From assembly GCA_963675595.2 (NCBI GenBank), contig CAXXLZ010000001.1, forward strand, positions 928,001-992,000: 64,000 nt of DNA, written 5' to 3'. Positions 1 through 43,384 of the stretch are shown here, piece by piece. The stretch is from Thermodesulfobacteriota bacterium. GTDB taxonomy: Bacteria; Desulfobacterota; Desulfarculia; JACQYL01. A program made the translations under genes and the position numbers. The notes under the pieces are model-generated. The model was not told the origin of the DNA, did not search any database, and was given only the letters and a program-made list of their open reading frames with translations. The number at the start of each line of letters is the position of its first letter. The first letter of the stretch is position 1.

Positions 1-280
1 GGTCCACTCCCATTTTGGTCAGAAACTGTTCCTTGGAAGGGAGGTTGACCACCAACTCGTCGATTCTTGGCAGGGCGATGAAATCGTAGGGATGCTCATT
101 GTCCAGGTTGGCCCAAACTACGTCTCCCTTGCTGACGATGGTGCTGTCTTCCAGAGCGACGAAGATTTCCTCAGGAAAATCTTCTCGCCGGTAAAACTGC
201 CTCACGATTAGCATCACCATGGCTTTCTCAACGGTGATCTCTTCGGGTCTTGTTTCGGTGAAATTTCCAAAAAAAGTCAA
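1..280 (-). CDS. Hypothetical protein, 5' part only (runs off window start)
   Basis: Manual translation from TTG at 280 after an AGGAG RBS: LTFFGNFTETRPEEITVEKAMVMLIVRQFYRREDFPEEIF..., open to position 1. Confidence 0.55.
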   Translation of the reverse strand, partial: MTFFGNFTETRPEEITVEKAMVMLIVRQFYRREDFPEEIFVALEDSTIVSKGDVVWANLDNEHPYDFIALPRIDELVVNLPSKEQFLTKMGVD

Positions 281-27495: not shown

Positions 27496-27774
27496 CCTCC
27501 CTTCTCCAACCTCCGAATCTTCCAATAAAAACACGTCCGATTTCGCGCATCCCCCTCGTTTGAAAAAGTAAAAATAGTTTCCTTCATGTTGTCCCTCCAA
27601 TGATCCTGTAATTTCAATAAGTTATCGTTTCGCGCAACGTTTCAGTTCCTTCCAATGATTCCGGACACTTGCATCATATCCCGCCAAATCTAAATCATGC
27701 GCGGAAAACCTACGGAACTAGTTGAAATCATTTGTTATCCTCTTTGGGTCAGCAAATATCCCAAAGATGGCAAG
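27496..27774 (-). promoter_or_regulatory. CRISPR leader
   Basis: AT-rich non-coding stretch between cas2 and the first intact repeat, containing repeated TTTCGCGCA motifs. Confidence 0.75.
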
Positions 27775-28050
27775 CTACACCACGATCACCTCCTCGTCCT
27801 CGACGATCGCACCCACTCCCACGATCTCCACTCTGTCTTTGCAGCGTTCGCAAAGCAGGTAATATCTCACTCCGTCTTCTTCCTTATCCAACTCCCGCTC
27901 CACAAGCTCACGCATCTTCAAGAACCGCCGATCGTCCAACCTGCATTCGAACACGCTCTTCTGAACCCGCCGGCCGTAGCGCGTAAGCAGCTTGGCCACC
28001 CTGTTTCGCGTCCGATCATCCACAATATCATAGGAAACCACCACATGCAT
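27775..28050 (-). CDS. cas2: CRISPR-associated endonuclease Cas2
   Basis: VVSYDIVDD.R...VQKSVFEC. Confidence 0.96.
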   Translation of the reverse strand: MHVVVSYDIVDDRTRNRVAKLLTRYGRRVQKSVFECRLDDRRFLKMRELVERELDKEEDGVRYYLLCERCKDRVEIVGVGAIVEDEEVIVV

Positions 28051-28059
28051 ACGCGCCTC

Positions 28060-29109
28060 CTATTTCATGGGATACGGCACGTATTCCCCGTTCCCCTGAA
28101 TACAACGGGCGCACAACCGTACCTGTTCGAGGCAAACGTCCCGATACGTCAATCGCTTACCCGTGGGTACATACATGACCCGCCCGTTCAGCTTCCGTTC
28201 GAACCGTGTGATGAACTTGCGCATCCCTTGATGGGTCAACAGCACCGGGTACCCCTCCTTGGGCGTTTCTGCCTCGGCGAAATCGTACGCCGCGGGTTCC
28301 TTCTCTTCCGGGTAGTAGAAGTCGGTGAGCCGGATTTCCTTTCGATTGATCATGTGCATGACCAAGGAGTCCACCAGGACGGGACGGAACTCCTCCATCA
28401 AGTCCAGCGCCAAGGAAGGCCGGCCGTAATCCACCGCATGGAGGCATCCCAGGTACGGGTCCAATCCGACCACGTTCACCTGGGTTTGCACGGCGTTGGC
28501 CAGCAGCGTGTACCCCAGACTCAACAGGGCGTTGACCGGGTCGCGGGGAGGCCTTCGGTTCCTTCCTTCGAAAATGAAACCGTCGCCCGAGATCAACTGC
28601 CCCAATCCTTGAAAGTATTCCACCGCGGCGCGGCCTTCAACGCCCATCAGGGCCTCGATGCTCTCCATCTCCTCGATGCGCCCGGACAGCAGGCGAATGC
28701 GGTGAAGCTTCTCGATCACCGGTTCCAGGCCGGTCCGTTGGTTCAATCTCCTGAGGAGGGTCCGGCTGTTGGCCAGCTTGCCGGCCAAGATTCTCTTGGC
28801 CGTGTCGAGACGAAATTCCGCATCGTCCATCTTGCGAAACTGGGCCCGACGCAACTCGATGTTCTTGCCGAATTGGGAGATCAACCGACCCCTGTACTTT
28901 CCGTGCACAGACATGAACACCGTATCGATTCCTTCGGTCAACAGATAACCGATCATGACCGGAGACAGGCTTACGTTGCCCATGACCACCACCTGGTTCA
29001 CTTTGAAGGCGTGAACCCATTGGATGGTCTTGCCCATCTTGCGCACTTCGATCCGGTCTCCGCGTTTCACAAGGCTTGCTCCCTGATCCCCCACATACAA
29101 AATGGACAT
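28060..29109 (-). CDS. cas1: CRISPR-associated endonuclease Cas1 (no RT fusion)
   Basis: GVEGRAA.YF, RRPPRDPVNALLSLGY, LDPYLGCLH, LALDLMEEFRP. Confidence 0.97.
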   Translation of the reverse strand: MSILYVGDQGASLVKRGDRIEVRKMGKTIQWVHAFKVNQVVVMGNVSLSPVMIGYLLTEGIDTVFMSVHGKYRGRLISQFGKNIELRRAQFRKMDDAEFRLDTAKRILAGKLANSRTLLRRLNQRTGLEPVIEKLHRIRLLSGRIEEMESIEALMGVEGRAAVEYFQGLGQLISGDGFIFEGRNRRPPRDPVNALLSLGYTLLANAVQTQVNVVGLDPYLGCLHAVDYGRPSLALDLMEEFRPVLVDSLVMHMINRKEIRLTDFYYPEEKEPAAYDFAEAETPKEGYPVLLTHQGMRKFITRFERKLNGRVMYVPTGKRLTYRDVCLEQVRLCARCIQGNGEYVPYPMK

Positions 29110-29242
29110 GTCCCATTTACCCGGCCGTTCAGGAGGCGAACTCCTGAAATGAAGGAGTTACAAGCCTGTTCGTCCTCGATTCGGTGAAAAACATCGCAGA
29201 AAACCGAGTGCCGATCGTCTGAGGTTTCAATTGAGCGGCTAT

Positions 29243-31138
29243 TCAAATTTCCAAGGCGAAAACAGGCGGCGTGTTTTCCTTTTGTAAGCGTCTGAGTACG
29301 CCCAAGGCCGTGTGAATCTCTTCAACCCCGGCCGCCTCGAAGACTTCGTTCAATTGCTTTTCCAATCCGTCCATCTGCAGGCTGAGTTCCCGCAGTTGCC
29401 TGCGCGTTTTCAGGTAGGATTCCACCAGTTGATGAAAGCGTATGGAATCCAGGCCTCTTCCCGCTCCAGTCGAGGTCTTGACCGGCTCCAATTCGCGCAT
29501 ATGGTTCAAAGGGCTGGGGTAGAGGTTCAACAAGGGATCAAAGGAGCAATTGCAGGACGTTGCAGCGGTGATGTGCGGGATCCGCATCCGGATTTTGGGA
29601 CAACTGATGGGATTTCCTCTTAATCGGGACTTCATGAATAAGCTGGGATCACTCACGGCGCAACGCTCGAGAAGCCCGTTCACGGCTTCGGGCCCTTGCT
29701 CGAGGTGTCCCACGGAATGCATCAGCACCATGGCTTCGTCATGGGTGAGGGAGGCTTCCCGGTTCACCCTTTCGACAATGGTCTTGAGCACCGGGCACTT
29801 GAGCAGGAGAAACTGCAAGCGCGGATCACGGTCCGGATCGTAAGGCGGTTCCGCGACGGCCGGGGCTCTATAGCCGTCCGATTCTTCCCAGGGCGGCGGC
29901 TCTTCCCTTTCCGGAGGTGAAGGCGGGGCGGCCCTGACGGACGAAGCGTTCGCGCGCTGGATGAGGGCATATACGCAGCGTCGCTCCGTCTTCATGATGG
30001 TTTCCAGAAAGTCGAGCTGTTGGGTCTGCGGCGCACCGGAAGGCTCCAAGAAAATGCTTCTGCGTCCCGTCTTCTTGTGTATGCCCAAAGGCAGCTTGAT
30101 GAGGTTTCCGAGACCACCCGGTGCCACGCGGGATTGCTTGGGAAACACTTCCACCGTGACTTCGGGGGGCAGGGCGCCGGTTCTGGAAAGCAGCACATGG
30201 CCGCACTTTCTCGCCACTCCGGCCGGGATCGGCGTTTCGAGAAATATCCAGGCGTGACGACCCTTGAAGCCCGAGTCTTCGATGTACACCGGAAGGTCCT
30301 CTGAGGCGCCCGCATCCACGAGCTTGCAGGCGGTCTGATGCACCCGGCTCATGACACTGTCCCATGCCGATTTGCTGTTGATGGTCTTGCGCACGACAGG
30401 CTTGGCGATGTCCACATCAAAAGCGATGAAGTTTACCGTCTGATCCAGTCGCAAGGGGTAGGCGCCCGCCGTGAGGTTGCCCAAGACGTGTTGTTCGGCC
30501 ACTTTGAGGGTGAAAGGCTCGTGCACGGGAGTATACCCCGATTCGCCCGTGGGACTCGCCCACTGCCGAGCATAAACGCCCTCCCGGCCGGAAAAGAGGG
30601 CCAGGAATGTCACCAGGTGGTGGGAAGCCGGGACGAGGACTTCGGTTCCGTCGGCGCTCGCAGGTTCCTCGGTGTCCTTCGACAGGAAATCCAGTTCCTT
30701 GAGTAGGCTTTTTAGGCCTTCGTCTCCGGTTTGTTCGATGCCCCGCGTGTAGATTTCTCCCGCTTTTCCGTATTCACCGGTCTCTTCAAGCAGCTGCCCC
30801 AGAGCTTGATAAGCGTCGGCATCCTGTGGAAAAAGGTCCACCAGTTTTCCACGGTAATGGCAGGCTTTTTCCATTTGCCCCTGATCCAGGTGAATTTCAG
30901 CCAAGCGACCAATGATGTTCGCATCGTCGGGCTGATCACGCAACGCCAGGTTCAGCTCAAGGATCACCTGATCCATCAGACCCAGCTCTTCCAAAGCGTC
31001 GGCCCAACGGACGTGGACGGCAAAGTCCCGCATGTCCATGGTGTTGCGCGCATGGGCCGCGGCTTCGGCTTCCGCCGTCCTGCCTGAAGCCGCCAGACTC
31101 CGGATTTCGTCGATGTCGCGAATGATGGAATCCGTCAC
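29243..31138 (-). CDS. CRISPR-associated primase-polymerase (CAPP; TPR + AEP + Cys-rich C-terminal domain)
   Basis: N-terminal TPRs; FSGREGVYARQW, FDVD (motif I), SGFKGRHAW (motif II), GNLIKLPLG; C-terminal CPV...ISCPKI...CNC; adjacent to cas1. Confidence 0.88.
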   Translation of the reverse strand: MTDSIIRDIDEIRSLAASGRTAEAEAAAHARNTMDMRDFAVHVRWADALEELGLMDQVILELNLALRDQPDDANIIGRLAEIHLDQGQMEKACHYRGKLVDLFPQDADAYQALGQLLEETGEYGKAGEIYTRGIEQTGDEGLKSLLKELDFLSKDTEEPASADGTEVLVPASHHLVTFLALFSGREGVYARQWASPTGESGYTPVHEPFTLKVAEQHVLGNLTAGAYPLRLDQTVNFIAFDVDIAKPVVRKTINSKSAWDSVMSRVHQTACKLVDAGASEDLPVYIEDSGFKGRHAWIFLETPIPAGVARKCGHVLLSRTGALPPEVTVEVFPKQSRVAPGGLGNLIKLPLGIHKKTGRRSIFLEPSGAPQTQQLDFLETIMKTERRCVYALIQRANASSVRAAPPSPPEREEPPPWEESDGYRAPAVAEPPYDPDRDPRLQFLLLKCPVLKTIVERVNREASLTHDEAMVLMHSVGHLEQGPEAVNGLLERCAVSDPSLFMKSRLRGNPISCPKIRMRIPHITAATSCNCSFDPLLNLYPSPLNHMRELEPVKTSTGAGRGLDSIRFHQLVESYLKTRRQLRELSLQMDGLEKQLNEVFEAAGVEEIHTALGVLRRLQKENTPPVFALEI

Positions 31139-32370
31139 GGTAACCTCGGAAATTCTATCACCGGATGGATGCCGGTGAACTCGGTTACGGTGTCGAGGAA
31201 ACTTCTTGCCTGAGATTCCCCAATCGGCTGGATTCCGTGGGCCAGGAACGAATGGTTTCGAATGTCCGTCACGGCCCGCATCCTGTCCCGCATGGTCTCA
31301 AACCGCAGGCCGATGGGATTCCCGGTCTCGGCGAGAAAACGAAAGGTGGAAAACAAGGGGAGCTGAAGTTTGTTCTTGCCTGAATCGAAGTGCTTGCTCG
31401 AATATTCATCGCGAATGCTTTCCGGCACTTGCTCCAAAGGCACGTCCGAAGTGGTATGGCCGGTTTGCCCTAAAAAGGCGTCCTGTCCGTACATTTCCAG
31501 GGCTCTATAGATTCGGGCCGCGGCGTCTTCGAATTGCCGGTCCTCGATGCGCCTTTGGGCATTAGCCAACAGGTCCTCCACCAAAATGACGTGCACCTGA
31601 TTGAGGCCCCTGGTCCGGTTGAGGAGTTGACTCAGGAAATCCGCGTTGTGCTCCACCATGGCCTTCACCGCGTCGAGGTCTTCGTGATACTCCAGTTCAA
31701 GATGCTCTCGCAGCTTACGGGAACCCTCCTTGATGCATTCGGCGGCCTTCTTGTATTCGAATCGTTCCCATAGGGCGTATCCTTCGGACAACAGCGTCAA
31801 CCAGGAAAAGAAGGATCGAATTTTGTGCGGCATCTGATTGATGCGGTCGAAGGAACCGAGCAGTTCCTTCACCGCGGCGAATCGGCGTTCGTTGAACAAT
31901 ATGGCGGCGTTCCGACGTTCCTCTTCGGCAAAAGCGGCCCAGGGGCTGATGTTGGTCATCATGATTTCACTGCCCGATTGGACGATTCCAAGACCCTGCT
32001 TATCCCGCTGAGTACCTCCCACGTAATTGAAATGATATTTCCTTCCCACGGTGGCCAGGACGAGCGCGGCCACCATAGGCTTGGTGCCGCCCGTGTAGTC
32101 CACCATGACTTCCGACGCCGAGACCTGTTCCGCCTCCAATCGGCGCACACATCGGGAGGCGGCTTCGTAGCACGAAAGCAGCACGTCGCTGTTTTCAGTA
32201 ATCTCGAAGTAGGTGGTCGGCACAGGATCGATGCCCTGGAGAACTTCACATGCCTTAACCACTGATTGGTGGGACGCTAGAAATACCACCGTGGCGGGAC
32301 GATGTTCTTCGATGCTTTGTCTCAGGGGCTCGGGCGCCCCGCCCAGGGACATGATCATGGCACTGTACAT
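31135..32370 (-). CDS. CARF-HEPN effector (TIGR02710 / Csm6-like ribonuclease)
   Basis: SLGGAPEP, VDYTGGTKPM (CARF); ARIYRALE and RNHSFLAHG (HEPN R-X-H). Confidence 0.85.
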   Translation of the reverse strand: MYSAMIMSLGGAPEPLRQSIEEHRPATVVFLASHQSVVKACEVLQGIDPVPTTYFEITENSDVLLSCYEAASRCVRRLEAEQVSASEVMVDYTGGTKPMVAALVLATVGRKYHFNYVGGTQRDKQGLGIVQSGSEIMMTNISPWAAFAEEERRNAAILFNERRFAAVKELLGSFDRINQMPHKIRSFFSWLTLLSEGYALWERFEYKKAAECIKEGSRKLREHLELEYHEDLDAVKAMVEHNADFLSQLLNRTRGLNQVHVILVEDLLANAQRRIEDRQFEDAAARIYRALEMYGQDAFLGQTGHTTSDVPLEQVPESIRDEYSSKHFDSGKNKLQLPLFSTFRFLAETGNPIGLRFETMRDRMRAVTDIRNHSFLAHGIQPIGESQARSFLDTVTEFTGIHPVIEFPRLP

Positions 32371-32481
32371 TGACGATACCTCCAGCAATGGATGGTCCTC
32401 TCCTACGCTGCGGCCCGCCGAAAGGCGCGTGAGACGAAAGAACATGGAAAAAACAGTCTCTTCATTTTTTTTCCGCTCCTT

Positions 32482-33612
32482 TCAGAAAAGCCCCAACGAC
32501 GATCTTTGATTCAGGTCCGCCATGCACGCCAAGGTCTGATCGTCGGTGGAAGCCGAGGTGTGCACCACGAACTTGGCCAGGGCTCCTTTTTCGGTATACC
32601 AGCCTTCCACTTCCCCGATTCGAGTGCCCGCCGTGCGTTTGAACACCTTGGGTCGATCCAGGTCGGGATTGTAATACCAGGTCCGGATTCGCTGGACGTA
32701 GGGAACTCGCAGGATATTTTCGAGATAACGGCGCAGACCCGGCGGACGATCCCCCGTGCCGTGCTCCGTGAGAATTTTCTTGGCTGGAGGGTCGAGCGTT
32801 GAAGCCGGCGGCAGCATGGTCTCTTTGAGCCGCTCGAAACGGGACCTGAAGGATTCATGGAAGAGCTGGCCCGTGGGCGATAATTTGAGAAAAGCACGGC
32901 CGTCCAAATCAACGGTCTCCACCAGGGACTCCATGGCCGGATCGGGCAGGACTTGCTCATCGTCCACTTCCAAGCCTTCGTCCAGTTCGAAGAACAGCCC
33001 GCTTTGGTTGAGCCAAAGAGAAAGATCAAAGGCCACGGGCTGGGGCGGCAACTCGATGACCTTGTCGAACCGTTCGAACTGGTAGCAGGTGGAGATACCC
33101 AGGGCCTGACCGATCATTCCGGCAAAGGAAATCTGGGCCTTGTACCCCCCGGTGGCGTTGATGAGAACGTTTTGGGCGCCGTATTTCCGCACTGCTTGGG
33201 AGATTTCCCGCACCAGGTTCCTGAGTCCCTCCTTGCGGAAACGTTCCGGATCCTGGTCGGAAAGTCCCTCCAGAACCTTGACCGCAACCGATGCGAACGC
33301 AGCACCTTCCGGGCGTGCATCGAAATAGCGCTTCAGCAGGTTTCCGATGAGTCGGCCGTCTTCCGTGTCGGAAACCAGGAGAATCAGTGCGTCGGCCGAA
33401 GCGAGCTTCTGTGCAAGAATCCCGGTAATGGATTGGATTTCCGCTCCCAGGAGATGTTCCCCGGAAGGAAGCCCGCGCATTGCGGCCGCCAGGCCCACGG
33501 TGTTTCCGCTCTCCAGAAGAGACTTGAGTTCGCCTCGTTCGCTGTTGCGTATGTTTCCCATGAGGCTGGTGCCCACGGTGGCGATGATGATGCGGGGGAT
33601 GGATTGCTTCAT
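32482..33612 (-). CDS. CARF protein, APE2256/TIGR02619 family, with C-terminal effector domain (Cami1/RelE-like candidate)
   Basis: TVGTSL, AEIQS, SDT.DG, NATGGYKAQ, YQFE.F..VIELP; about 100-aa extra C-terminal domain. Confidence 0.8.
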   Translation of the reverse strand: MKQSIPRIIIATVGTSLMGNIRNSERGELKSLLESGNTVGLAAAMRGLPSGEHLLGAEIQSITGILAQKLASADALILLVSDTEDGRLIGNLLKRYFDARPEGAAFASVAVKVLEGLSDQDPERFRKEGLRNLVREISQAVRKYGAQNVLINATGGYKAQISFAGMIGQALGISTCYQFERFDKVIELPPQPVAFDLSLWLNQSGLFFELDEGLEVDDEQVLPDPAMESLVETVDLDGRAFLKLSPTGQLFHESFRSRFERLKETMLPPASTLDPPAKKILTEHGTGDRPPGLRRYLENILRVPYVQRIRTWYYNPDLDRPKVFKRTAGTRIGEVEGWYTEKGALAKFVVHTSASTDDQTLACMADLNQRSSLGLF

Positions 33613-35102
33613 GATTCTTCACCGATAATTTCTTTGATTTTGGCTACTTTTTCCCGCTGCTTTTTGGTAGAGCAGTCTTTCTTTTTCCACTTTCCGGTGC
33701 GCCGCCAATACTCTTTGAGGGCCAAAGCCAGCGGTTTGGGGTTGTCGAATTCGCTCAATTTCTGGTAGAAATCCACCACTTCGTTTTCGCTTACGTCGGG
33801 TTCACCGACCCTGAGGGCGGCTTTTTCCACAGGGGACAGTTGCTCCAATCGTTTTTTGCGTTCCTCTTCTTCCGCGGCTTTCAGGCGTTCTTCTTCCGCC
33901 TTACGGTTCGCTTCTTCCTCCGCGGCCGTGCGCTCCGCTTCCAGACGTTCGCGTTCAGCCAAGTCGGAGCGAATTTGCCCCTCCCGGATTTTGTTCCACT
34001 CGGAGTCCATTTCAAAGAATCGATCTTCCAATTCCGCGGTGATGGGGCATACTTCGCACCACCCGAAAGGAGCCGGAGTTTCGGGGTCGTCGACCCGTGG
34101 TTCCGGCGATGCGAACCATGTCGTAGTGGCTTGTCGCATGGTTTTGAACTGCGTCCTGCCCGCCTTCACCCGAATCTGTCTATGCCCCTCGATTGTGAGA
34201 CACTCCGCTCCGGAATGCCTTCCGATGCGGATGAGGGAACCGCCGTTTCGGCTCAGAACATTATCGGCCATCCCAAGGTGATTAAGGATTCCCTGCTCCA
34301 CCTTTTGCTGATGATCGCAGAAGGCCTCGGATTCCCCCAAGACCGATTCCGTGTCGACGCCTATGCGGATGCCGGCTTTTCGTTCCGGATGCTGGAACAG
34401 AATGCTGCCTTGAAACAACGATCCCGGTTCGATCACTTCGAGAATCTGGTAGGGTCCCCTTGCTTCCTTATCGCTCTTTTCCTTCTTGTGATTCACCGCG
34501 TAGACGATTTGGGTTTTTACGTAACCGACGGGAAGGAAATCCGACACTTTAACAAGCCGAAAGGGGTCCGTGTCGAATGAGCCACCGTCAAGAAGGTCCT
34601 TCTCGAGTTTCTTTGCTTCATTGGGCCTATAAGGGGGCAGCTTCTTGACCTTCTGCCTTGCATTGAGAAAAGCGGTTCTAAGGGAGCCTTTGATGGAAGA
34701 ACCCGGTAGGTAGGGTCGCCCGTCATTGAGGAAGGCGGTTCGCCCAATGGTGAATTGATTGAGTTGGTTGCGTATTTCTCGATCATTGCCCGACGGGAGG
34801 GAGAGTGTTTTGCGGTAATGATTCACGAAACCGCTCGTCAGCTTTACTTGTCTTCCCCGGGCTGATTTTCCCTGCAGGAATTTATAGATTTCCAGAATTG
34901 AACCGATCGTACCCTTCAGGCATATCTGTGAGAACCTGGTCTTTTCATCCGGAGACAATGAGGCGAGAAACGAGATCGGATCAAAGGGGATCAAGACTGC
35001 ATCCTTCTCATCCACTACAAATCCGGTGGGTTCGTACACTTCATCCGTGCCGACATGGATCGGTGACAATGTGCGGATATAGCAGCTGAAGAATTCGTTC
35101 AT
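33609..35102 (-). CDS. csm5: Type III-A RAMP Csm5
   Basis: LSPIHVG, PYLPGSSIKGSLRTA, DPFRLVKVSD, IRIGRHSG, PFGW. Confidence 0.92.
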   Translation of the reverse strand: MNEFFSCYIRTLSPIHVGTDEVYEPTGFVVDEKDAVLIPFDPISFLASLSPDEKTRFSQICLKGTIGSILEIYKFLQGKSARGRQVKLTSGFVNHYRKTLSLPSGNDREIRNQLNQFTIGRTAFLNDGRPYLPGSSIKGSLRTAFLNARQKVKKLPPYRPNEAKKLEKDLLDGGSFDTDPFRLVKVSDFLPVGYVKTQIVYAVNHKKEKSDKEARGPYQILEVIEPGSLFQGSILFQHPERKAGIRIGVDTESVLGESEAFCDHQQKVEQGILNHLGMADNVLSRNGGSLIRIGRHSGAECLTIEGHRQIRVKAGRTQFKTMRQATTTWFASPEPRVDDPETPAPFGWCEVCPITAELEDRFFEMDSEWNKIREGQIRSDLAERERLEAERTAAEEEANRKAEEERLKAAEEEERKKRLEQLSPVEKAALRVGEPDVSENEVVDFYQKLSEFDNPKPLALALKEYWRRTGKWKKKDCSTKKQREKVAKIKEIIGEES

Positions 35103-36136
35103 GGCGCAGCCTCCAACCGCAAGGGCAGGTAAAAGGAATACCCCTGCGCGATGGTGTCCGGTACGGACTTGGACAACCCTTGAATGCAAACTCCCAAATA
35201 AGGTTGATCAAAAACCTTGGGATCGCGGGTCCTCAGTACAGCCCCCTCATCCGCCATGATAATGGGATTTTTGAAAGGATTTGGGGATTTGGCCATGCCG
35301 TCGCCGTGCTTTCCAAACCGAACGAACGGCTTGAACCAGCAGAAATCAAAGGAATTCTCCTGGGGCACGCAGGGACTCAATGTGTAACAGGCGTTGGCGC
35401 CTTTCAGTCGGGGCACTGGCGCCTCCTCAGGATCTGCGACATCAAACCGGCCGTATCCGGTGGAGGCGTCCCGCCCGAATCCGGAATCACCGATACGTTG
35501 GAGCCCTGAGAACACCCGGTCGATGTCCGTGACGTTTTCGTCCAGTAGAACGAACACGACGAGTTCCGTTCCCGGGGCGTAAGAAAAGGCGTCCAAGGAG
35601 AAAGGTGCGAACTCGCCGGTTCCTGTGGTCTGCCTGAGCCTGTGAATGGTGTTGTGCGAGTGTACGGTTTGTAGCATAAATCCCGGACGTTCGACGGACG
35701 GCCATAGGTGGGAGGCCTGCTCGGTCGCTAAGCCGTTTATACTGTCAAGTACATCCTGATCGGACGCCAGCTTGGGTTGGGTGAGGTCAATGGAATCAAG
35801 ACTTTCGACGACCAACCATTTCTTTCCTTTCCGTTCTTTGCGCAGTTTTACCCTTTCCTTCCTGCTCTCACCATTGACTGGAAAAAGCATTGAATAAGGG
35901 AGTTCGGGTCGGGGTAAGTAATAAATTTGCTTGGAATCCCCCACAACCATGGGGAATGCGGAAGAGAATACGACAAAAGGGGCCTCCGCGTATCTTTTGA
36001 CGGCCTCATTCAGACCGCCTTTTACCAGGTCGTCGTCGTAGAAGACTTGCCAACAGAACTGCCCGAAGAGGGTATCTCCCTTGAGAGGTGTGCCGAAGGA
36101 AGACTTGGGCTTCAGAGTGATTTCATAGAGTTGCAT
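35099..36136 (-). CDS. csm4: Type III-A RAMP Csm4
   Basis: GDTLFG, FSSAFP, GFGRDASTGYGRF. Confidence 0.92.
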   Translation of the reverse strand: MQLYEITLKPKSSFGTPLKGDTLFGQFCWQVFYDDDLVKGGLNEAVKRYAEAPFVVFSSAFPMVVGDSKQIYYLPRPELPYSMLFPVNGESRKERVKLRKERKGKKWLVVESLDSIDLTQPKLASDQDVLDSINGLATEQASHLWPSVERPGFMLQTVHSHNTIHRLRQTTGTGEFAPFSLDAFSYAPGTELVVFVLLDENVTDIDRVFSGLQRIGDSGFGRDASTGYGRFDVADPEEAPVPRLKGANACYTLSPCVPQENSFDFCWFKPFVRFGKHGDGMAKSPNPFKNPIIMADEGAVLRTRDPKVFDQPYLGVCIQGLSKSVPDTIAQGYSFYLPLRLEAAP

Positions 36137-36148
36137 GTTGGCTCCCAT

Positions 36149-36847
36149 CTATCTGAGGGGCGTAACCCGGGCAAAATCCCTTTGCACGTCTTCCTCGTCA
36201 AACAAGAACGATACTCTCCCATAGCCCCTGCTTCCACTGCCTCCCAGTGCGTCCATCTCCAGTAATTTCAGGCCTTCCAGAAGAAGATCATACAGGCCTT
36301 GTTCTTCATCGAACCGCTTGAGCGTGACTGAAAATTCGAATTCAGTTTCGGCGGGCACTCGTTCGGTGAAACGCGGGTTTTCCGCCGTGCCTTTAATTCT
36401 GTTGATGGAATTCTCGGACTTGACTTCGAACAGGGGCAGTCGAGCGTCCAGGGCCTTTCTCTTGTATTCTTCATGCAGAGAACAGTCTGCGAATGACGCC
36501 CGTGTGGGTCCCAGGTCGGAAACATCTTCCAAGTCCGCCCCGCTTGAACCAAACAGCTTCAAGATAGCCTCACAGCGTAGCCGTTCCTCTCCGTCCAATC
36601 GCCTGAGGATTCCCGCCGAAAGCGGTTTGCCGTCTGTAAGAGCCATCAGCCCACTGCCCAGTTCGAGGAGTGCTCTCACCTTGCCCTTAATGGATGACCC
36701 TGGAATGTAAGGTTCCAAGGTGTGCGGATGCTTGACCACGGGATTATCCGTACCCCCGATCCGCATTTCGGTATCGCCGGCGCCGATGTGCAACCCGCTC
36801 TTCAAAATGAGCTTTCCTTTGATCTCTTGAATCGCAGTCAGTTTCAT
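36149..36847 (-). CDS. csm3: Type III-A RAMP Csm3
   Basis: GLHIGAG..IGGTDNPVVK (catalytic Asp), PYIPGSSIKGK, LGGSGSRGYG. Confidence 0.95.
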   Translation of the reverse strand: MKLTAIQEIKGKLILKSGLHIGAGDTEMRIGGTDNPVVKHPHTLEPYIPGSSIKGKVRALLELGSGLMALTDGKPLSAGILRRLDGEERLRCEAILKLFGSSGADLEDVSDLGPTRASFADCSLHEEYKRKALDARLPLFEVKSENSINRIKGTAENPRFTERVPAETEFEFSVTLKRFDEEQGLYDLLLEGLKLLEMDALGGSGSRGYGRVSFLFDEEDVQRDFARVTPLR

Positions 36848-36858
36848 CTTGTTTTCTC

Positions 36859-37263
36859 CTAATTTGTCGGCCCGTAGTGCCGGTAGAAACCCATGAACGC
36901 TTCAAAAAAGTTGGCGAAGACGTCCAAGTCCTCTTTCGTACTTACTTGATTTACCGAACGCTTCATCAAGTCATGAAACTCTTTGGAAACCAAGTTTCGA
37001 CCATAAGCGTAAGTGGCTTTCGCTACGAGCATATGTACATAGGGCAACAGGTGATCCCATTCTTCGTCTTTCCTTTGGGCTTTGGCTAGCCCGTTCAGTC
37101 TGGTCACTTCATCAAAGAACTTTCTGATCTGCGTCCTCTTATCCAACTTGGTTTGCTTGGCGTTGCTTCCTATGCCTTCGGCAAGCTTTTCAGCCTGTAC
37201 GGAAAAAAGGGTGGGATCAATGAGGCCTTTTCCTTTGTCCTTCCAGAATATGATCTCGTTCAT
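36859..37263 (-). CDS. csm2: Type III-A small subunit Csm2
   Basis: TQIRKFFDEV, AK..YAYGR, FFEAFMGFY. Confidence 0.93.
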   Translation of the reverse strand: MNEIIFWKDKGKGLIDPTLFSVQAEKLAEGIGSNAKQTKLDKRTQIRKFFDEVTRLNGLAKAQRKDEEWDHLLPYVHMLVAKATYAYGRNLVSKEFHDLMKRSVNQVSTKEDLDVFANFFEAFMGFYRHYGPTN

Positions 37264-37274
37264 GTGATTTCCTC

Positions 37275-39893
37275 CTATCTTGTTTCGTACATGAATTTCC
37301 AAAGGGGTATACGAAGGCCGCCGGGGTTCTTAGCCAACCATTGGGTGAAAATGCGGGCGGCATTTTGTATGGCGTTTTCACGCTCTTGCTTGCCGAGACC
37401 TTTGCCCACGTTTCTTTCGATGGCATAACAAAGAAACGCCCGCCATTTTGTGCATCCCATGTCTTCAATTCGTATGCTCTCCTGTTTGTTCAGCTTCTTT
37501 TCCCGTATGGCCATGGAAATGACTTCATTCATTCGATAGAGGAAGGACCGGGTCAGTACGCCCTGTTCCAACCATTCACGCATTTGGAGTTCCAAGTTCA
37601 GCAAATCGGAGAAATCCGACCAAGCCACGACTTCACCAAACAGGGTTATTCGATCACGTCCGGCATGCTTCGCCTGTTCGAGCGCCGCTTCGGAGGACTC
37701 GGCAAGCCGATCCGTTGGAAGGTTGGGTTTGGCGAGTTCGATACCCGCGGAAAAGTGGATTTCGGGATTGCCGCAGACGTATCTTTCAAAATCCTCTCTA
37801 AGCTGTAGAGCCAGGTCGATCACTCGGTTCCAAGGTCCGATGAGGAACAAATCGTCTCCACCCGCGAAGACCGTGTAGATGTCTTTGAAGTCCCCCCTGG
37901 TGCTCAGCAGATGAGGAAGATATAGGCAGAAGAAGAAATTCAGCTGGCGACTCAACGTGGAGAGTCGGGAGAGACTGAATCGTTCCTCGGGGAGTCCACA
38001 GGCAATAATGAGTCCGAGATTATCCACATCGGCTTTCAGGATTCCTAAGGCTTCGGTGCCGCGAGGTCCGCTTCCATCCTTTTCGGCATGCAACGACTTG
38101 ATCGCGATATGGCCCAAAGTCTTGGGGGCCTGCAACTCCATATCCATCATGAGTTCGGCCTTTCGGGATTCGTCTTTCCTGCTTCGAAAAAGCCTCTGGT
38201 CGTTTTGGTCTTCTTCATTGAAGACCGGTAGATAGCCGTTGATATATCTTTCCGCTATTTCTCCACGAGTTGCCGACTGTGGTTCATCACGCCACGCAGC
38301 CAGGTCCCAATACCGCAAGAGGTGACCTTGCTTGGCCATTTCATTCAGTGAACCGTTCAGGAATGCCAACTGATAGGACCCGAAAATCGGTTCCATCAAT
38401 TTCTTGTGGTCGCCCTTAATTTCCGCTTCAATAGCGGTGACGGCAATTCGATCGTTCTTGACCAGATTCGTGCCCAAGAAGATGTGATCACGGCAAACGG
38501 TGCAGGCCGATTGTGCTTCTCCCACAAGGGGGGTGTTCTCGGCACTGGGATGAGACGGCCTTTTCCCGCAGAAAGGGCAAAGGGGCCGGGTCAGGTCGTT
38601 GTTGAAAGCATCCAGGTATTCACTCACAACGCCCAAGTGCCGGGAAAAATCAAAACGAGCGTATTTCCGTCCTTCGGAGGCTGACAGCAGTCTTTCCCAG
38701 AGACTATGAAATCGGCCTTCCTTGGATACGAAATCAGCCGCCGCCGCCGGTACCTGTGAAAGGCCGAAAGAATTCTCCCCATAAGAGATACGGATGAGCC
38801 AGTCATTGATCCGCTCCTGCACGGTAGCCAAAGCCTTCTTTGTAGCCTCTGTATTCGGAGCGATCATCGTAAACTTGCCGGCGACGTTCAGCAGCGAGGA
38901 AGAAAAAGGCAGCCCGATCTCCCTACACAACATGTCGGATGCCAACTCAGAGAACAATGATACGGCAAATGAGCGTCCCCTTAGTATCTTGGATCTGTAC
39001 CTTCTCGTAGATCCGTACTTGCTGAAAATAAAGGACTGAATTCCGTGGAAATCCCCATTTATGATGAGAAATTTCTCGGGTTGGTAGTCCTTTATGCTTG
39101 ACTCGCTGAGATCGCCGATTTCCTTGTGGTACAAATAGAGTGCGGCTGAAATGGCGGCAACGCTTTTTGAATGATCGTAGAGCGAGATATCGGGTACGAC
39201 TTTCCCACTTCTGTCCGAGGGAACTGCCGAGGCAAACTTCATCATCAGGCTGTCGAAATTCTCAAACCAAAGGGCCAAGTTCACATCACGGTGAGAAAGC
39301 TTATGAAGTGCAGCCACAAAATCCGAGAAAAAGATTCTGTATTCTTGACGTGATTTGTCCTTTGATTGAGTTGAATGTGGTTTTTCCGGAAAAATAGTCA
39401 TTGGCCCCATAGGCTTTAGAGGGTATCGATATTGAACTTGCTTATGCGAACCGGAATTTCGGTCCAATTCGATTTGCTCGAAGATGGGCCAAAGACGGAC
39501 ATTCCGGTAATTATGCGTCGATGATCTATTTTCTTCAGCTTCGGTTGGATACGCGTCACGATCCCATCCACTGCTGATTCGGTCGGCGACCGTAATGATC
39601 CATTGAAGGGGAGTTTCCGGCTTGTGGTGCGAAGCGGCCAAATTGATGAATGAGTCGCCGTCACCCCAATCCGGACTGTTCAGTTCCCGTGGAAGAATAT
39701 GTTTCATGGTCTCGATGAAACATGCCGTATACAAAGCGTGAATATGCGAGTGCCATCCGTCTCTAAACGGTTGGTAGATGTCGGCGTTGTTTTGGATATA
39801 CTCCTCGGTGAGACCCAGTACCTCCGGATCCACCATTTTTCCCAAGTCGTGACAAAAGCCGGCCATCGAAACTTTCAATACATTTCTATCCAT
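37275..39893 (-). CDS. cas10: Cas10/Csm1 with HD nuclease and cyclase palm domains
   Basis: HDLGK, ASHH, ADRISSG, SLYDHSK, CPFC/CTVC, KADVDNLG, AGGDDL. Confidence 0.96.
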   Translation of the reverse strand: MDRNVLKVSMAGFCHDLGKMVDPEVLGLTEEYIQNNADIYQPFRDGWHSHIHALYTACFIETMKHILPRELNSPDWGDGDSFINLAASHHKPETPLQWIITVADRISSGWDRDAYPTEAEENRSSTHNYRNVRLWPIFEQIELDRNSGSHKQVQYRYPLKPMGPMTIFPEKPHSTQSKDKSRQEYRIFFSDFVAALHKLSHRDVNLALWFENFDSLMMKFASAVPSDRSGKVVPDISLYDHSKSVAAISAALYLYHKEIGDLSESSIKDYQPEKFLIINGDFHGIQSFIFSKYGSTRRYRSKILRGRSFAVSLFSELASDMLCREIGLPFSSSLLNVAGKFTMIAPNTEATKKALATVQERINDWLIRISYGENSFGLSQVPAAAADFVSKEGRFHSLWERLLSASEGRKYARFDFSRHLGVVSEYLDAFNNDLTRPLCPFCGKRPSHPSAENTPLVGEAQSACTVCRDHIFLGTNLVKNDRIAVTAIEAEIKGDHKKLMEPIFGSYQLAFLNGSLNEMAKQGHLLRYWDLAAWRDEPQSATRGEIAERYINGYLPVFNEEDQNDQRLFRSRKDESRKAELMMDMELQAPKTLGHIAIKSLHAEKDGSGPRGTEALGILKADVDNLGLIIACGLPEERFSLSRLSTLSRQLNFFFCLYLPHLLSTRGDFKDIYTVFAGGDDLFLIGPWNRVIDLALQLREDFERYVCGNPEIHFSAGIELAKPNLPTDRLAESSEAALEQAKHAGRDRITLFGEVVAWSDFSDLLNLELQMREWLEQGVLTRSFLYRMNEVISMAIREKKLNKQESIRIEDMGCTKWRAFLCYAIERNVGKGLGKQERENAIQNAARIFTQWLAKNPGGLRIPLWKFMYETR

Positions 39894-39924
39894 AACGCCT
39901 CCTCAGCTCACAAGGTGGATCGTC

Positions 39925-39970
39925 ATTGTAGCTCTTGTTCCGCGAAAATAAACCCCGGCAACGTTGCCGT
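39925..39970 (-). promoter_or_regulatory. Palindromic operator plus putative sigma-70 promoter of cas10
   Basis: CGGCAACGTTGCCG at 39956-39969; TACAAT (minus strand) at 39925-39930, 25 nt downstream. Confidence 0.65.
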
Positions 39971-39971
39971 A

Positions 39972-41096
39972 TCAGTAGATGACTTTGATCCGGTTTCGGT
40001 CCATTAGAATCCCATATCTCTTGCTGGGTGGAATCCCCGTTGATGCGATTTCCAGCTCTTTGACGGCGTAGGGGCCGTATCGGTCCAACAAGGCTTTTCT
40101 GATCTTGGACTTGTAGGAGTTGAAATTCTCAGAGCTGAGCGCCGTTATGCCTGTATCACTCATGCCGCCGATCACACGCCCTCTCGTAAGTTTGCGGTAC
40201 ATTTCGGTCACTCGTTGCTGCTGTTCGTGCACCTTTTCGATCTCCATGAAGCATTCGGAACAACCCTTACAATCCAAACGACTGCAATCGTATTCCTTTT
40301 TGTGTTGGACGAAGAACGCGTAAAGCGCGAGGTGGGCGGGCCTCATGTCCAGCTCCATGCCGCGATAGACTAGCGAATTCCGACTCAGGTCCAGCAGAAG
40401 CTGTTGCCTGGTTTCCCGCACAAGGGAAAGCATAAGCGTTCCCGGGTCCAAAGGTTCCTTGAGCAACTCATCCGACAACCGGTCCCGGACGCCGGGAAAG
40501 GGCAAATGCACCAGGTTGACTTGGGAGAACCGGGTGTCTTTGTAACAGGGTTCGCCCTTTTCATCCTTCAGGCAAATGATTCGGGGCTCCTTGGGAGGGT
40601 AGAAGAACGCCGGGTTGCTTTCGAATTCGGGTGAGACCAGCACGTGATAGACCCGATCTTGAGGCCGGGCATAGACCTGGGCCGCCAGGGCCAGGCAGGA
40701 ACTCATGGTCTTCCTTCCCCCGGCCAGGGAGAAATAGACCGTCGTGTCCGGAGAAGCCGTGAAGCGGAAGGCCAATCGGAGGCAGAGGCCCAGCAGCCGC
40801 TCATTGTCTTCCTCGGTCACGATGTCCCCCGTCTCGATACCGTGCTCGTCGGTCACCACGTGCACGTTCCTGTGAGTAAAATCCACGGAGTTCGCCGGTA
40901 ACCCTTGCTCCTCTAAATACTGATGAAAGATGCCCGATTCCGGAATGAGGAGCGTGGAAAAAATCCGTTCCTTGCCTTGACGGGTGGTAATCACATGTAC
41001 CGCATCAACGGTCTTGCCGTTCTGATGCAGCGCGTAAAGCGTCTCCGTAATCACCTGAGGCGCAAGGCCGCACACCGCCAACAGGACGGATTTCAT
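39972..41096 (-). CDS. CARF protein, NE0113 family (ring-nuclease-like), with C-terminal Cys4/winged-helix-like domain
   Basis: GLAPQVITETLYAL, SLAGGRKTM, HVLVSPEFE; C-terminal CSRLDCKGCSEC and NSYKSKIRKAL..YG (OmpR-type wHTH-like). Confidence 0.82.
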   Translation of the reverse strand: MKSVLLAVCGLAPQVITETLYALHQNGKTVDAVHVITTRQGKERIFSTLLIPESGIFHQYLEEQGLPANSVDFTHRNVHVVTDEHGIETGDIVTEEDNERLLGLCLRLAFRFTASPDTTVYFSLAGGRKTMSSCLALAAQVYARPQDRVYHVLVSPEFESNPAFFYPPKEPRIICLKDEKGEPCYKDTRFSQVNLVHLPFPGVRDRLSDELLKEPLDPGTLMLSLVRETRQQLLLDLSRNSLVYRGMELDMRPAHLALYAFFVQHKKEYDCSRLDCKGCSECFMEIEKVHEQQQRVTEMYRKLTRGRVIGGMSDTGITALSSENFNSYKSKIRKALLDRYGPYAVKELEIASTGIPPSKRYGILMDRNRIKVIY

Positions 41097-42046
41097 GCGT
41101 CATCCTCGGGCGTGACCGTGATCTTTCCCAGACCGAAACTGGTGGCCTTACCCAGATGCACGGTCTCACAGTATTTGAGGAGGGGCAGAAATTCTCCGAC
41201 GGCCCCCTCGTAAGTTATGGTTCCGATCATGCCTCCCATAAGCATGGCCTGTTCTTGGCGATTGGAATATCGTCGCCAATCGAACCATCGTAGCTGTTGT
41301 GAAGCCGGTCTCACTGCTTGCGCCCGTGCCACCAGGCCCCGGTAATCTATGTCGGGCTCCCCGTTTCCGAAATGCCGGTTGAGGGCGGCCAGCCGACGGA
41401 GGGCCGCACGAATCAGGACATGGAAAGGAAGCTCCGCCTGCAATCGGTTTTGGAACTTGAGTCTCAGCGGCGTATCCAAGGACAAGCGAACGCGATTTGG
41501 ACTTTTCAATTTCGTGGAAAAGTCGGCCAGGGCAATATCCGGTGGGGCTTGGGTTTCGAGCCGTCTTTCTTCTCCGTTGTAGGATGAACCATGATCCGAC
41601 GTCATGGAGTCGATGCGAAATGAGGCCCTTTTACCCTCATGCTTCTTTCCAATGCCCAGTGACCCCATTTGTTCCAGGGCGTAGACAAAGTAGGGGAGAG
41701 AATCGTTGGCGTATCCGAACAGGAGCAATCGAAAGTCGAAACTGCTTCCTTTCGGATGAACCGTCCGGGACGACAAGGGGGGTTCGATGACGAACGGGTG
41801 TGGAGGGGAAGGTGAAGCAGTAGTAGGCCGGTCCCCATGATTCCAGCCTGCGGAGTCTTCGAAGACTCTTGCATAGATGCATTGTTCGCGGAGAAGGCAG
41901 TCCGGACATTCCTGTCGTTTCAGCGCGCAGACCACCCGTTTCAGGGCGACTCCGAATACGCCTCGAAAAGTGGATCCTTTGAAAGGGGGTAGGTAGGCGT
42001 CATCCTCGAAAACCGAATGAAAATGATAACGGCCGAATCTCATCAT
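41093..42046 (-). CDS. cas6: Cas6 pre-crRNA endoribonuclease
   Basis: GSTFRGVFG, C..C..C..C insert, PHPFV, HLGKATSFGLG glycine loop. Confidence 0.92.
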   Translation of the reverse strand: MMRFGRYHFHSVFEDDAYLPPFKGSTFRGVFGVALKRVVCALKRQECPDCLLREQCIYARVFEDSAGWNHGDRPTTASPSPPHPFVIEPPLSSRTVHPKGSSFDFRLLLFGYANDSLPYFVYALEQMGSLGIGKKHEGKRASFRIDSMTSDHGSSYNGEERRLETQAPPDIALADFSTKLKSPNRVRLSLDTPLRLKFQNRLQAELPFHVLIRAALRRLAALNRHFGNGEPDIDYRGLVARAQAVRPASQQLRWFDWRRYSNRQEQAMLMGGMIGTITYEGAVGEFLPLLKYCETVHLGKATSFGLGKITVTPEDDA

Positions 42047-42082
42047 AGAGCTCCCTGCGTTGGATTACATTCCGGAATTCGG

Positions 42083-42129
42083 ATTAAATACCGCCGTGCT
42101 CCGGCAAACAAGCGCGGCAACGTTGCCGT
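42083..42129 (-). promoter_or_regulatory. Palindromic operator plus putative sigma-70 promoter of cas6
   Basis: CGGCAACGTTGCCG at 42115-42128, then on the minus strand TTGTTT-N17-TTTAAT. Confidence 0.65.
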
Positions 42130-42262
42130 GCGAATCGAATCGTGGTGCGGATGCGGAGCAGGGGCTATCGGTGCATTGTTTTCAGGAAGCGACAGCCTTT
42201 CATGAGCTTGATACGCGTACAGGAGCGAGGGGCGTTTTCATCCGAGACGACCCGCCCGAGTC

Positions 42263-42281
42263 AAGATTATTCAATAATCTT
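42263..42281. promoter_or_regulatory. Perfect 9-bp inverted repeat upstream of the cas operon
   Basis: AAGATTATT-C-AATAATCTT. Confidence 0.45.
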
Positions 42282-43060
42282 TATTTCTTAGGCTGTTTTC
42301 AGCGATGTGTCTATAGGGAGTTCCCGTCATTTTTGCAGATTAGCGGCCTGTGACGATCTTGGTTTGGTTCTTAAGCTTGACTTCAGGACAGGCAGTGGTA
42401 GGCTGAAATCGTTTAAAATCCGGCGAATCGGATGATCATCCGACCATGTTCCGAAAATTTCTTTCAATGTTCGAATCCGTCCAGACCCGAGGGGCCCCGA
42501 AGACCCAGGGCGGTTTTTTTCCGCCGCGGGCAATTGCGCGCGATTTTTTGATGGAAATCACCATGAGTAAGAAGGAGACTTTGAACGGAGAAACCATTAT
42601 CGGCGCCACCGCCGGCTTCGACTGCGACGAAGCGTCCTGAGAGTTCGAAGCCACAGGTGGCAGGGTCGAAATGGTGGAAACCGTCTTTGTCGAAGGCTTC
42701 GAAGAAGCCTGAAAGGCGGCCTTGCCGGGGTGGTCCCGGCCGGCTCTTCAAACAGATCGATTGTTAGCTCTCGGGGTATGAAAGCATGGCGCAACGCAAG
42801 AGGCGAAGGAACCGGCGCTTGATCAATGCGCAACAGAACCAGGAATAGAACCATTTGAATTATCAAGGAACATATCAATAACATCAAATTCGGTAAAATG
42901 GGGATGTTGGTGCCGTTGTGTGCACAATTACCGGGAATTACACAGAAAATTTGGTACAATAGAGCAGGGCGAGATATGGTTTCGAAAAACTTACTATTGG
43001 TCATGTTTAAGAAAGGAGCGAGCTTCGAAAAGGCCGTCACGTAATGCTTAAGAGGTCCGA

Positions 43061-43384
43061 GTGTGCCTCCCATGTGCCCACGGGAAAGGAGAACGATTGA
43101 ATGGGCGGTCTTTACAAACGTGGAAGCGTCTGGCGGCCAAATACAATCACAACGACAAACCGGAATCTCTGCCGGGGCGGGGTGAACGAACGATCGCAAT
43201 GGCCGTAACGGGGCACAAGACCCGGGCCGTTTTCGACCGATACAACATCGTCAGCGAGTCGGATTTGAGAATGGCGACGGAACGGCGGGCCGCATACCTG
43301 GAGGCACAGAGCGGGCGGTTGGGCGCAGTATCGGGCACAACGGCCTTGAAAAACAAAAGGGAAGCTGCGGAAGCGTCAAGATGA
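43061..43384 (+). pseudogene. C-terminal remnant of a tyrosine recombinase/integrase
   Basis: [19 protein letters not shown] carries the box II GH...Y catalytic segment; N-terminal part absent; abuts tRNA 3' end. Confidence 0.75.

Follow-up and report, generated by a model that had tools for sequence, protein, structure and literature searches.

How bacterial type III CRISPR systems regulate their own level of expression is, to our knowledge, little known, and we know of no characterised transcription factor sensing cyclic oligoadenylate (cOA) other than archaeal Csa3. A locus in the Thermodesulfobacteriota bacterium assembly GCA_963675595.2 raises this question directly. In the 64,000-nt stretch analysed here (contig CAXXLZ010000001.1, positions 928,001 to 992,000; hereafter the window, to whose numbering all coordinates refer), one perfect 14-bp palindrome stands both before cas6 and before cas10 of a type III system, and the gene between the two copies encodes a CARF protein with a winged-helix tail. 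Are the palindromes operators, and is the protein encoded between them the one that reads them? The evidence makes this the probable answer: both would be operators of the CARF-winged-helix protein, acting as an autoregulated, cOA-responsive transcription factor.

A palindrome at two cas promoters

The palindrome CGGCAACGTTGCCG, followed by T in both places (cggcaacgttgccg then t), occupies 39956-39970 and 42115-42129. Candidate operator O1 (42115..42128) lies upstream of the cas6-CARF operon, and candidate operator O2 (39956..39969) lies between the CARF stop codon and cas10; both are exact matches. An earlier reading of the bare DNA (the sequence-only reading) had described identical 15-nt sequences at both cas promoters, and the coordinates confirmed this. 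The genes of the locus are all on the minus strand, along which the order is O1, cas6, the CARF gene, O2, cas10, csm2-csm5, the downstream CARF/Csm6/primase genes and cas1.

The genome-wide scan suggested by that reading returned the same two exact copies of CGGCAACGTTGCCG in the whole 6,794,304-base genome, against 0.058 expected under a first-order Markov model; the palindrome is thus not common genome-wide. Its 10-mer core GCAACGTTGC is not a common genomic word either, since it occurs 7 times versus 6.8 expected, and the five copies outside the two operators all fall within long open reading frames (ORFs). When three mismatches to CGGCAACGTTGCCG were allowed, five more matches appeared in the window, giving 7 in total versus a shuffle mean of 4.0, which is no excess.

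Both sites adjoin promoter-like sequences. Read on the minus strand, the cas10 site consists of the palindrome, GGG, TTTATT, 16 nt and TACAAT, and the cas6 site of the palindrome, CGC, TTGTTT, 17 nt and TTTAAT. The predicted cas10 promoter (39925..39952, minus strand) accordingly has its -35-like box at 39947-39952 and its -10 box at 39925-39930, and the predicted cas6 promoter (42083..42111, minus strand) has its -35-like box at 42106-42111 and its -10-like box at 42083-42088. Both predictions draw on a profile of 92 related sites, described below. The spacings given in the sequence-only reading held on this strand: 3 nt from the palindrome to a weak -35 box, 25-26 nt to the -10 box, and 63 nt (cas10) or 69 nt (cas6) from the near edge of the palindrome to the start codon.

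Conservation of the candidate operator and its link to the CARF gene

Relatives of the CARF protein, about 374 aa long, number more than 2,500. Related loci were fetched from metagenomic data (80), genome records (4, from a single-protein search of genome contigs) and a relative's genome (1, the only further homologue among the 60 nearest relatives); after removal of 2 duplicates, 84 loci remained, including the window. Nearly all fetched loci have cas6 as the immediate upstream neighbour of the CARF gene. In the 538 kb that these loci comprise, GCAACGTTGC was counted 49 times versus 0.5 expected, and loci without the exact word mostly had GCAA-NN-TTGC at the same places with a different central dinucleotide. 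Of 61 loci testable before cas6, 38 have the core GCAANNTTGC at a distance of 30-300 nt from the gene, and of 76 testable past the CARF stop, 47 have it within 1.2 kb. At least one match before cas6 and/or the first effector gene was present in 64 of 82 testable loci with a CARF homologue, and 21 of 55 had matches on both sides. Within the canonical windows (93.4 kb), GCAANNTTGC gave 86 matches versus 1.4 expected, and a reversed control word gave 2. The central dinucleotide was CG in 45 of the 86 sites and TG/CA, GG/CC, GC or TA in the others; it varied by lineage and was mostly the same at both sites of a locus. The next gene was not a III-A cas10 in nine cases, where it was a RAMP gene (6), a Cas10 gene (1), cas2 (1) or unclear (1). 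One locus (L041) has no GCAA..TTGC core before cas10; another palindrome, TGTAATATTACA (L041:5365-5380), stands at about the same upstream distance and is possibly an altered form of the operator.

A profile of 92 unique related sites revealed a fixed promoter geometry. A -35-like TTG starts 5 nt downstream of the core, at +16..18, and was present in 78, 62 and 55 sites by position. Together with a T-A-A signal at +39..41 it forms a -35/-10 pair with a 17-nt spacer, and an A-rich stretch follows at the expected transcription start, from which the operator centre would lie at about -45. The flanks of the core are symmetric, with C/T (Y) at -1 and G/A (R) at +12. As the spacing to TTG is constant, the palindrome can be regarded as a promoter element. 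In 11 of 13 sites the palindrome centre was 70-74 nt from the cas10 start; the two remaining cas10 sites had distances of 80 nt and 215 nt (65 nt if the ORF-based start is used). The distance from the CARF stop varied widely, from 4 to 982 nt, and the palindrome therefore belongs with the gene that follows it rather than with the CARF 3' end. These profiles and the 64 positive loci bear out the view of the palindrome as a conserved, promoter-linked element of both cas promoters.

The same figures bear on two other explanations of the repeated sequence. The cas6-CARF pair is framed precisely by identical 15-mers and adjoins different effector operons, so the copies might be scars left by recombination at the ends of a mobile cassette, or simply a coincidence. 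Chance is excluded by the genome-wide and related-locus statistics given above. Against a scar, the distance of the downstream copy from the effector gene stays near 70 nt in loci where as much as 982 nt separate it from the CARF stop, further copies occur before cas1, 7-12 kb away, and the constant TTG spacing indicates a promoter element; we find this explanation hardly credible.

Alternatively, the palindrome could act in RNA: it might be a weak intrinsic terminator or an attenuator behind the CARF gene, or it might form a hairpin that serves in RNA processing or is bound by Cas6. A terminator-like scan does flag both copies on the minus strand (5-bp stem, 4-nt loop, T-rich tail). However, the scan called 5 sites versus 3.3 ± 1.7 in shuffles, the folds of six sites were no stabler than those of shuffles (z = -0.09, +0.23, +0.13, -1.24, -0.21 and -0.99), and the T-rich tail is the -35 box. 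Most loci are palindromic in the 10-mer only, which leaves a 3-4-bp stem, and the conservation extends to sequence beyond mere pairing. The distance is held to the next start codon and not to the preceding stop, and there is no likeness to the CRISPR repeat. A function in RNA is accordingly very improbable. An intrinsic terminator was also rejected on its own terms, given the 5-bp stem, the shuffle-level folds and scan counts, and a stem that is not kept elsewhere.

Association with the CARF gene was examined in two samples. In the first, the window and the 29 same-phylum genomes with the closest Cas10 (40-53% identity) were each searched for the CARF family and, in the 400 nt before cas10, for the motif. 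Nine of these 30 loci had both a close CARF homologue and the motif, 20 had neither, none had the close homologue only, and one had the motif only; this last locus (L108) carries GCAATATTGC at -271 together with a distant CARF homologue. The second sample comprised 401 genomes of the phylum and was not conditioned on Cas10. The CARF profile matched 59 of them, including 25 with a close homologue (E ≤ 1e-120), 2 with a homologue cut by contig ends and 32 with a distant one. A strict site, GCAACGTTGC-N5-TTG, occurred in 41 of the 401 genomes (reversed control, 16/401): in 15 of the 25 close-CARF genomes, in 1 of the 32 distant-CARF genomes and in 24 of the 342 without CARF. It shared the CARF contig, within 13 kb, in 14 of the 15 positive close-CARF genomes. 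When the other 11 close-CARF loci were fetched (10 without a strict site, and G099, whose strict hit is on another contig), 7 had a relaxed core at the canonical places, and the relaxed core is thus present in the locus in 21 of the 25 close-CARF genomes. The proposed link between the palindrome and the CARF gene was therefore upheld both in the Cas10-matched loci (9 versus 0) and across the phylum (15/25 versus 24/342).

This distribution also bears on whether a host regulator encoded outside the locus binds the palindrome. The site is compact and its centre is CG in about half of the sites, which recalls operators of the LacI/PurR type. However, in metagenomic loci as well as in at least 8 genome families the motif goes with the CARF gene. 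Of the 21 Cas10-matched loci without a close CARF homologue, 20 lack the motif, and in CARF-less genomes its frequency is near that of the reversed control. Its central dinucleotide varies and yet mostly agrees within a locus, and no other regulator gene was seen in the CRISPR locus of the window. An outside regulator is improbable on these grounds.

Strict sites in five inspected CARF-less genomes were treated as background. Those in G202 and G438 fall within an orthologous 562-aa ORF, and those in G410 and G292 are intergenic palindromes counted on both strands. In G356, three sites (C1:110772, C1:183201 and C9:8) share an 18-nt pattern, GCAACGTTGCAGTTTTTG, and the one copy fetched lies between ORFs; these copies may be a repeated element unrelated to CRISPR.

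Some genomes have a third site. In five (G387, G363, G129, G347 and G372), an extra copy with TTG at +5 stands 67-93 nt ahead of cas1, and the CARF gene is 7-12 kb further upstream. The Cas1 identity of the ORFs was supported by Pfam in all four tested, and in G363 by a similar N-terminus only. In a sixth genome, G274, the extra copy precedes an ORF of 170 aa, and the ORF after that has the size of Cas1. Of these six genomes (loci L135-L140), 3 have CRISPR arrays next in line. The window itself has no operator copy before cas1. The sequence-only reading had noted a 10/14 copy in the CRISPR leader of the window; this copy exists (GAAACGTTGC on the minus strand, 27632..27645), but its support as an operator is at chance level. 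One mismatch falls in its 10-mer core, at an otherwise fixed position, and TTG is missing at +5. Being one of 52 places in the window that match the 14-mer with at most 4 mismatches, it has no statistical weight; near matches to the 10-mer number 4 versus 2.2 expected. Among the fetched related loci, CRISPR arrays were present in 3 only, and none of these had the motif within 400 nt of the array.

The CARF-winged-helix protein and its relatives

The gene between the two operators (39972..41096, minus strand) encodes 374 aa, and its product belongs to the NE0113/Csx14 family according to both PF09623 (E 1.9e-65, 221 bits, cut-off 23) and TIGR02584 (E 3.1e-52, 177.6 bits, cut-off 80.65). Its full-length structure was predicted with a mean predicted local distance difference test score (pLDDT) of 88. 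A CARF domain (approximately residues 1-229) is followed by a winged helix (approximately residues 231-374), and Pfam found no further domain. The CARF domain resembles in fold those of Cad1 (Z 15.7) and Sso2081 (Z 15.4, root-mean-square deviation (rmsd) 2.1), and Foldseek matched it to Sis0455 (E 1.7e-7).

The wHTH-like tail noted earlier from the translation can be named more exactly, as the models point to a winged helix of the OmpR/PhoB type. Modelled alone, residues 228-374 gave a pLDDT of 88.6 and a predicted template modelling score of 0.86. The predicted order of secondary structure elements, E-E-E-H-H-H-H-E-E-E, fits the OmpR/PhoB fold, with its sheet, three helices and hairpin wing. 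The best fold match was the DNA-binding domain of CadC (Z 9.1, rmsd 2.5, 98 of 107 residues), followed by BaeR (Z 9.0), GlnR (8.4), AdeR (8.2) and DrrD (8.1), and all of the top 14 rows belonged to the OmpR/PhoB/ToxR family. Sequence searches of solved structures matched the CARF part only.

Homologues whose loci have the motif share a putative recognition helix, S-Y/F-x-S/T-K, and distant ones without the motif have Q-H/N/I-I-S-K or another sequence. This pattern is suggestive of covariation between helix and motif, with one locus (L082) as an exception. Between the first two helices of the winged helix lies a conserved cluster of four cysteines, C269, C276, C279 and C282 (C-x6-C-x2-C-x2-C; 40251-40292), which may serve zinc binding or redox chemistry; L084 and the distant homologues L007 and L008 lack it.

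In CARF ring nucleases the GxS/T of motif I is catalytic (PMC8844856). The window protein reads G-L-A-P at this position, with Ala12 (codon 41061-41063) aligned to S11 of Sso2081, and thus lacks the catalytic Ser/Thr of Crn1. Among 53 unique sequences, 41 have S/T at this position, 8 have N, one has H, one has Y and one is unassigned; the window protein alone has Ala. Motif II, GGRKTMS, was invariant among the homologues, and the NCBIfam Crn1 model scored 16.1 bits against a cut-off of 125. On this alignment, the window protein may sense cOA without cleaving it.

Three known systems invite comparison. Like Csa3 (Csa3a/Csa3b) of archaeal type I-A/III systems, the window protein combines an N-terminal CARF domain with a C-terminal winged helix and no enzymatic effector. 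Csa3 regulates cas promoters, adaptation genes included, and the predicted targets of the window protein and its relatives are of the same kind. Csa3 binds cyclic tetra-adenylate (cA4) (PMC8284326, PMC8844856, PMC8699464). Unlike Csa3, the window protein scores for NE0113/TIGR02584, and no Csa3 model was among its Pfam/NCBIfam hits; the CARF fold match to Csa3 (Z 10.9, 6wxq) ranked below those to Crn1 and Cad1 at Z 15. Its DNA-binding domain is also different, being of the OmpR/PhoB type with an N-terminal beta-sheet and the cysteine cluster, and no Csa3 chain was among the fold matches listed for it. The protein is bacterial, whereas Csa3 is archaeal, and its predicted control extends to the type III effector operon, cas6 and its own gene. 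Most NE0113 homologues keep the GxS/T ring-nuclease motif, whereas Csa3Sso is without ring-nuclease activity (PMC8844856).

The Crn1 proteins Sso2081 and Sis0455 have a close CARF fold, and their motif I (G-x-S/T-P) and motif II (GGRK) align with the family; Csx14 has been predicted to be a Crn1-type ring nuclease (PMC8284326, PMC12409355). Unlike Crn1, the window protein has 374 aa, including a 145-residue DNA-binding domain, and Ala in place of S11 of Sso2081. The long Crn1 forms Sso1393/Sis0811 carry a helix-turn-helix (HTH), for which the accessible parts of the literature searched named no operator or DNA target. A survey of ring nucleases used a 250-aa cut-off and excluded longer proteins (PMC12409355).

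The likeness to the OmpR/PhoB family (CadC, ToxR, PhoB, OmpR and BaeR) extends over nearly the whole DNA-binding domain (Z 7-9.1, rmsd 2.5-3, 90-100 residues). Promoter-proximal sites of this family lie immediately upstream of the -35 box, as the palindrome does. The window protein differs from the family in having a CARF input in place of a receiver or membrane domain, a site that is an inverted and not a direct repeat, and a Cys-rich loop between helices 1 and 2.

Direct regulation of transcription by the Csa3 and NE0113 families was predicted in 2014 (PMC4012209), and a 2025 classification counts transcriptional regulators among cOA effectors (PMC12669027). No operator or OmpR-type domain for the NE0113 family was mentioned in the accessible parts of the literature searched; the tables of PMC12409355, PMC12669027 and the main 2020 CARF classification may list long NE0113 proteins with an HTH. 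The comparative evidence strongly supports the pairing of operator and regulator. The protein would work like Csa3, but it belongs to a different family, has a different DNA-binding domain and is found in bacterial type III loci.

Proposed regulation and other features of the locus

It is very likely that the CARF-winged-helix protein binds the palindrome. In the circuit we propose, two-fold pairing of CARF domains would set two winged helices on the half-sites Y-n-GCAA and TTGC-n-R, and each operator would adjoin a sigma-70-type promoter, with 3 nt separating its edge from the -35 box and its centre falling near -45. The O1 promoter would drive cas6 and the regulator's own gene, and the O2 promoter the cas10-csm effector operon. 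Because Cas10 retains its GGDD cyclase motif, target RNA recognition should yield cOA, which on the CARF domain would alter operator occupancy or contact with RNA polymerase and so couple infection sensing to cas expression. Modulation of the protein by cOA is a likely part of the circuit, though we hold it with less confidence than binding itself.

Several observations weigh against this interpretation. Foldseek gave only weak matches for the C-terminal domain (best E 0.015, to the same family; none ≤ 0.001), and Pfam assigned no DNA-binding family to the C-terminal 159 residues; Trans_reg_C was not matched, and the two sub-cut-off hits (E 0.028 and 0.15) were unrelated. OmpR/PhoB domains usually bind direct repeats, and here the centres of the conserved half-sites are separated by only 6-7 bp. 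The motif was absent from 18 of 82 testable loci and, even in relaxed form, from 4 of 25 close-CARF genomes (G414, G099, G311 and G091). L082 (8626 nt) keeps the putative recognition helix ENFNSYKSKI, yet has no site within 2 mismatches of the 10-mer. On the Cas10 tree the trait changes at least 5 times, and of 4-5 independent contrasts, 3-4 ran in the same direction and 0 in the opposite one; this is consistent with the association but not significant (p = 0.125), as the contrasts are too few. A strict sigma-70 consensus scan called no promoter in 39700-42400, so that the promoters rest on comparative alignment; the scan misses both because their -35 boxes match the consensus at 3 of 6 positions. 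Finally, the -35 TTG is fairly well kept across loci, which suits a repressor-controlled promoter equally.

The sign of regulation follows less clearly, with activation somewhat favoured. OmpR/PhoB-fold proteins are mostly activators and bind just upstream of or over the -35 box. Activation is preferred because the DNA-binding fold is of this kind, because the site precedes the core promoter elements with no overlap, and because the -35 boxes in the host genome (TTTATT and TTGTTT) are weak; the same three points speak against the alternative in which the same protein, on the same operator, is a repressor. An apo dimer beside the -35 box would then hinder RNA polymerase, and cOA would either release it, giving derepression, or tighten it, giving negative feedback. 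The operator edge is so near the -35 box that the footprint would probably overlap it, and with TTG kept in 55-78 of 92 sites, many promoters may work unaided. Moreover, Csa3b represses cas genes and binds more tightly with a cA4 analogue (PMC8844856). We consider repression the less likely of the two, though a serious possibility.

A bolder extension of the CARF-winged-helix circuit is doubtful but of interest. The long form of NE0113 would be a 'timer', in which a Crn1-type ring-nuclease CARF domain is joined to an OmpR-type winged helix. With cA4 bound it would turn on the promoters of cas6, the type III effector genes and cas1, and then reset itself by cleaving the signal; the window protein, with its Ala, would be a latching, non-cleaving variant. 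If this were true, one protein would tie infection sensing to CRISPR RNA processing, interference and spacer acquisition in bacteria.

If the operator assignment is correct, the protein represents a second, unrelated family of CARF regulators, with a defined operator, Y-n-GCAA-NN-TTGC-n-R, and a defined promoter geometry. The proposed regulon consists of cas6 with the regulator, the effector operon and, in some genomes, cas1, and hundreds of natural variants are available. With operator, geometry, regulon and variants defined, cOA-dependent transcriptional feedback becomes directly testable, and the regulator and its operator could serve as a cOA-responsive genetic switch. The results also suggest that proteins annotated as 'ring nuclease Csm6/Csx14' include transcription factors.

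The genes under the two promoters were identified as follows. The cas6 gene (41093..42046, minus strand) encodes 317 aa (PF10040, E 2e-16). Its stop codon and the CARF start codon share 4 nt (ATGA, 41093-41096), an overlap that suggests translational coupling of Cas6 and the regulator. Downstream of O2, cas10/csm1 (37275..39893, minus strand) encodes 872 aa and was assigned by Pfam; the HD motif is at residue 15 and GGDD at residue 678. The remaining effector operon, csm2, csm3, csm4 and csm5 (33609..37302, minus strand), was assigned by Pfam/NCBIfam.

After csm5, the interval 31135-33612 (minus strand) encodes two proteins of 376 and 436 aa. The first is a CARF protein of the APE2256 family and the second a TIGR02710 Csm6 that has 6H and HEPN domains; added to the NE0113 protein, they bring the number of CARF sensors in the locus to three. 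Two ORFs matched no Pfam family: one of 200 aa at 42597-43199 (minus strand) and one of 496 aa at 27697-29187 (plus strand), the latter opposite cas1 and probably not a gene. The cas1 gene (28060-29109, minus strand) has a 91-aa ORF next to it. A CRISPR array of 11 repeats, with the leader adjoining, occupies 26700-27496; it is read on the minus strand, as indicated by the degenerate repeat at its low-coordinate end. The gene between csm6 and cas1 (29243-31138, minus strand) encodes 631 aa, in which TPR repeats are combined with an archaeo-eukaryotic primase domain of the TOTE type and a domain resembling Mu Gam/Gp157; such a primase-like protein adjoining adaptation genes is unusual.

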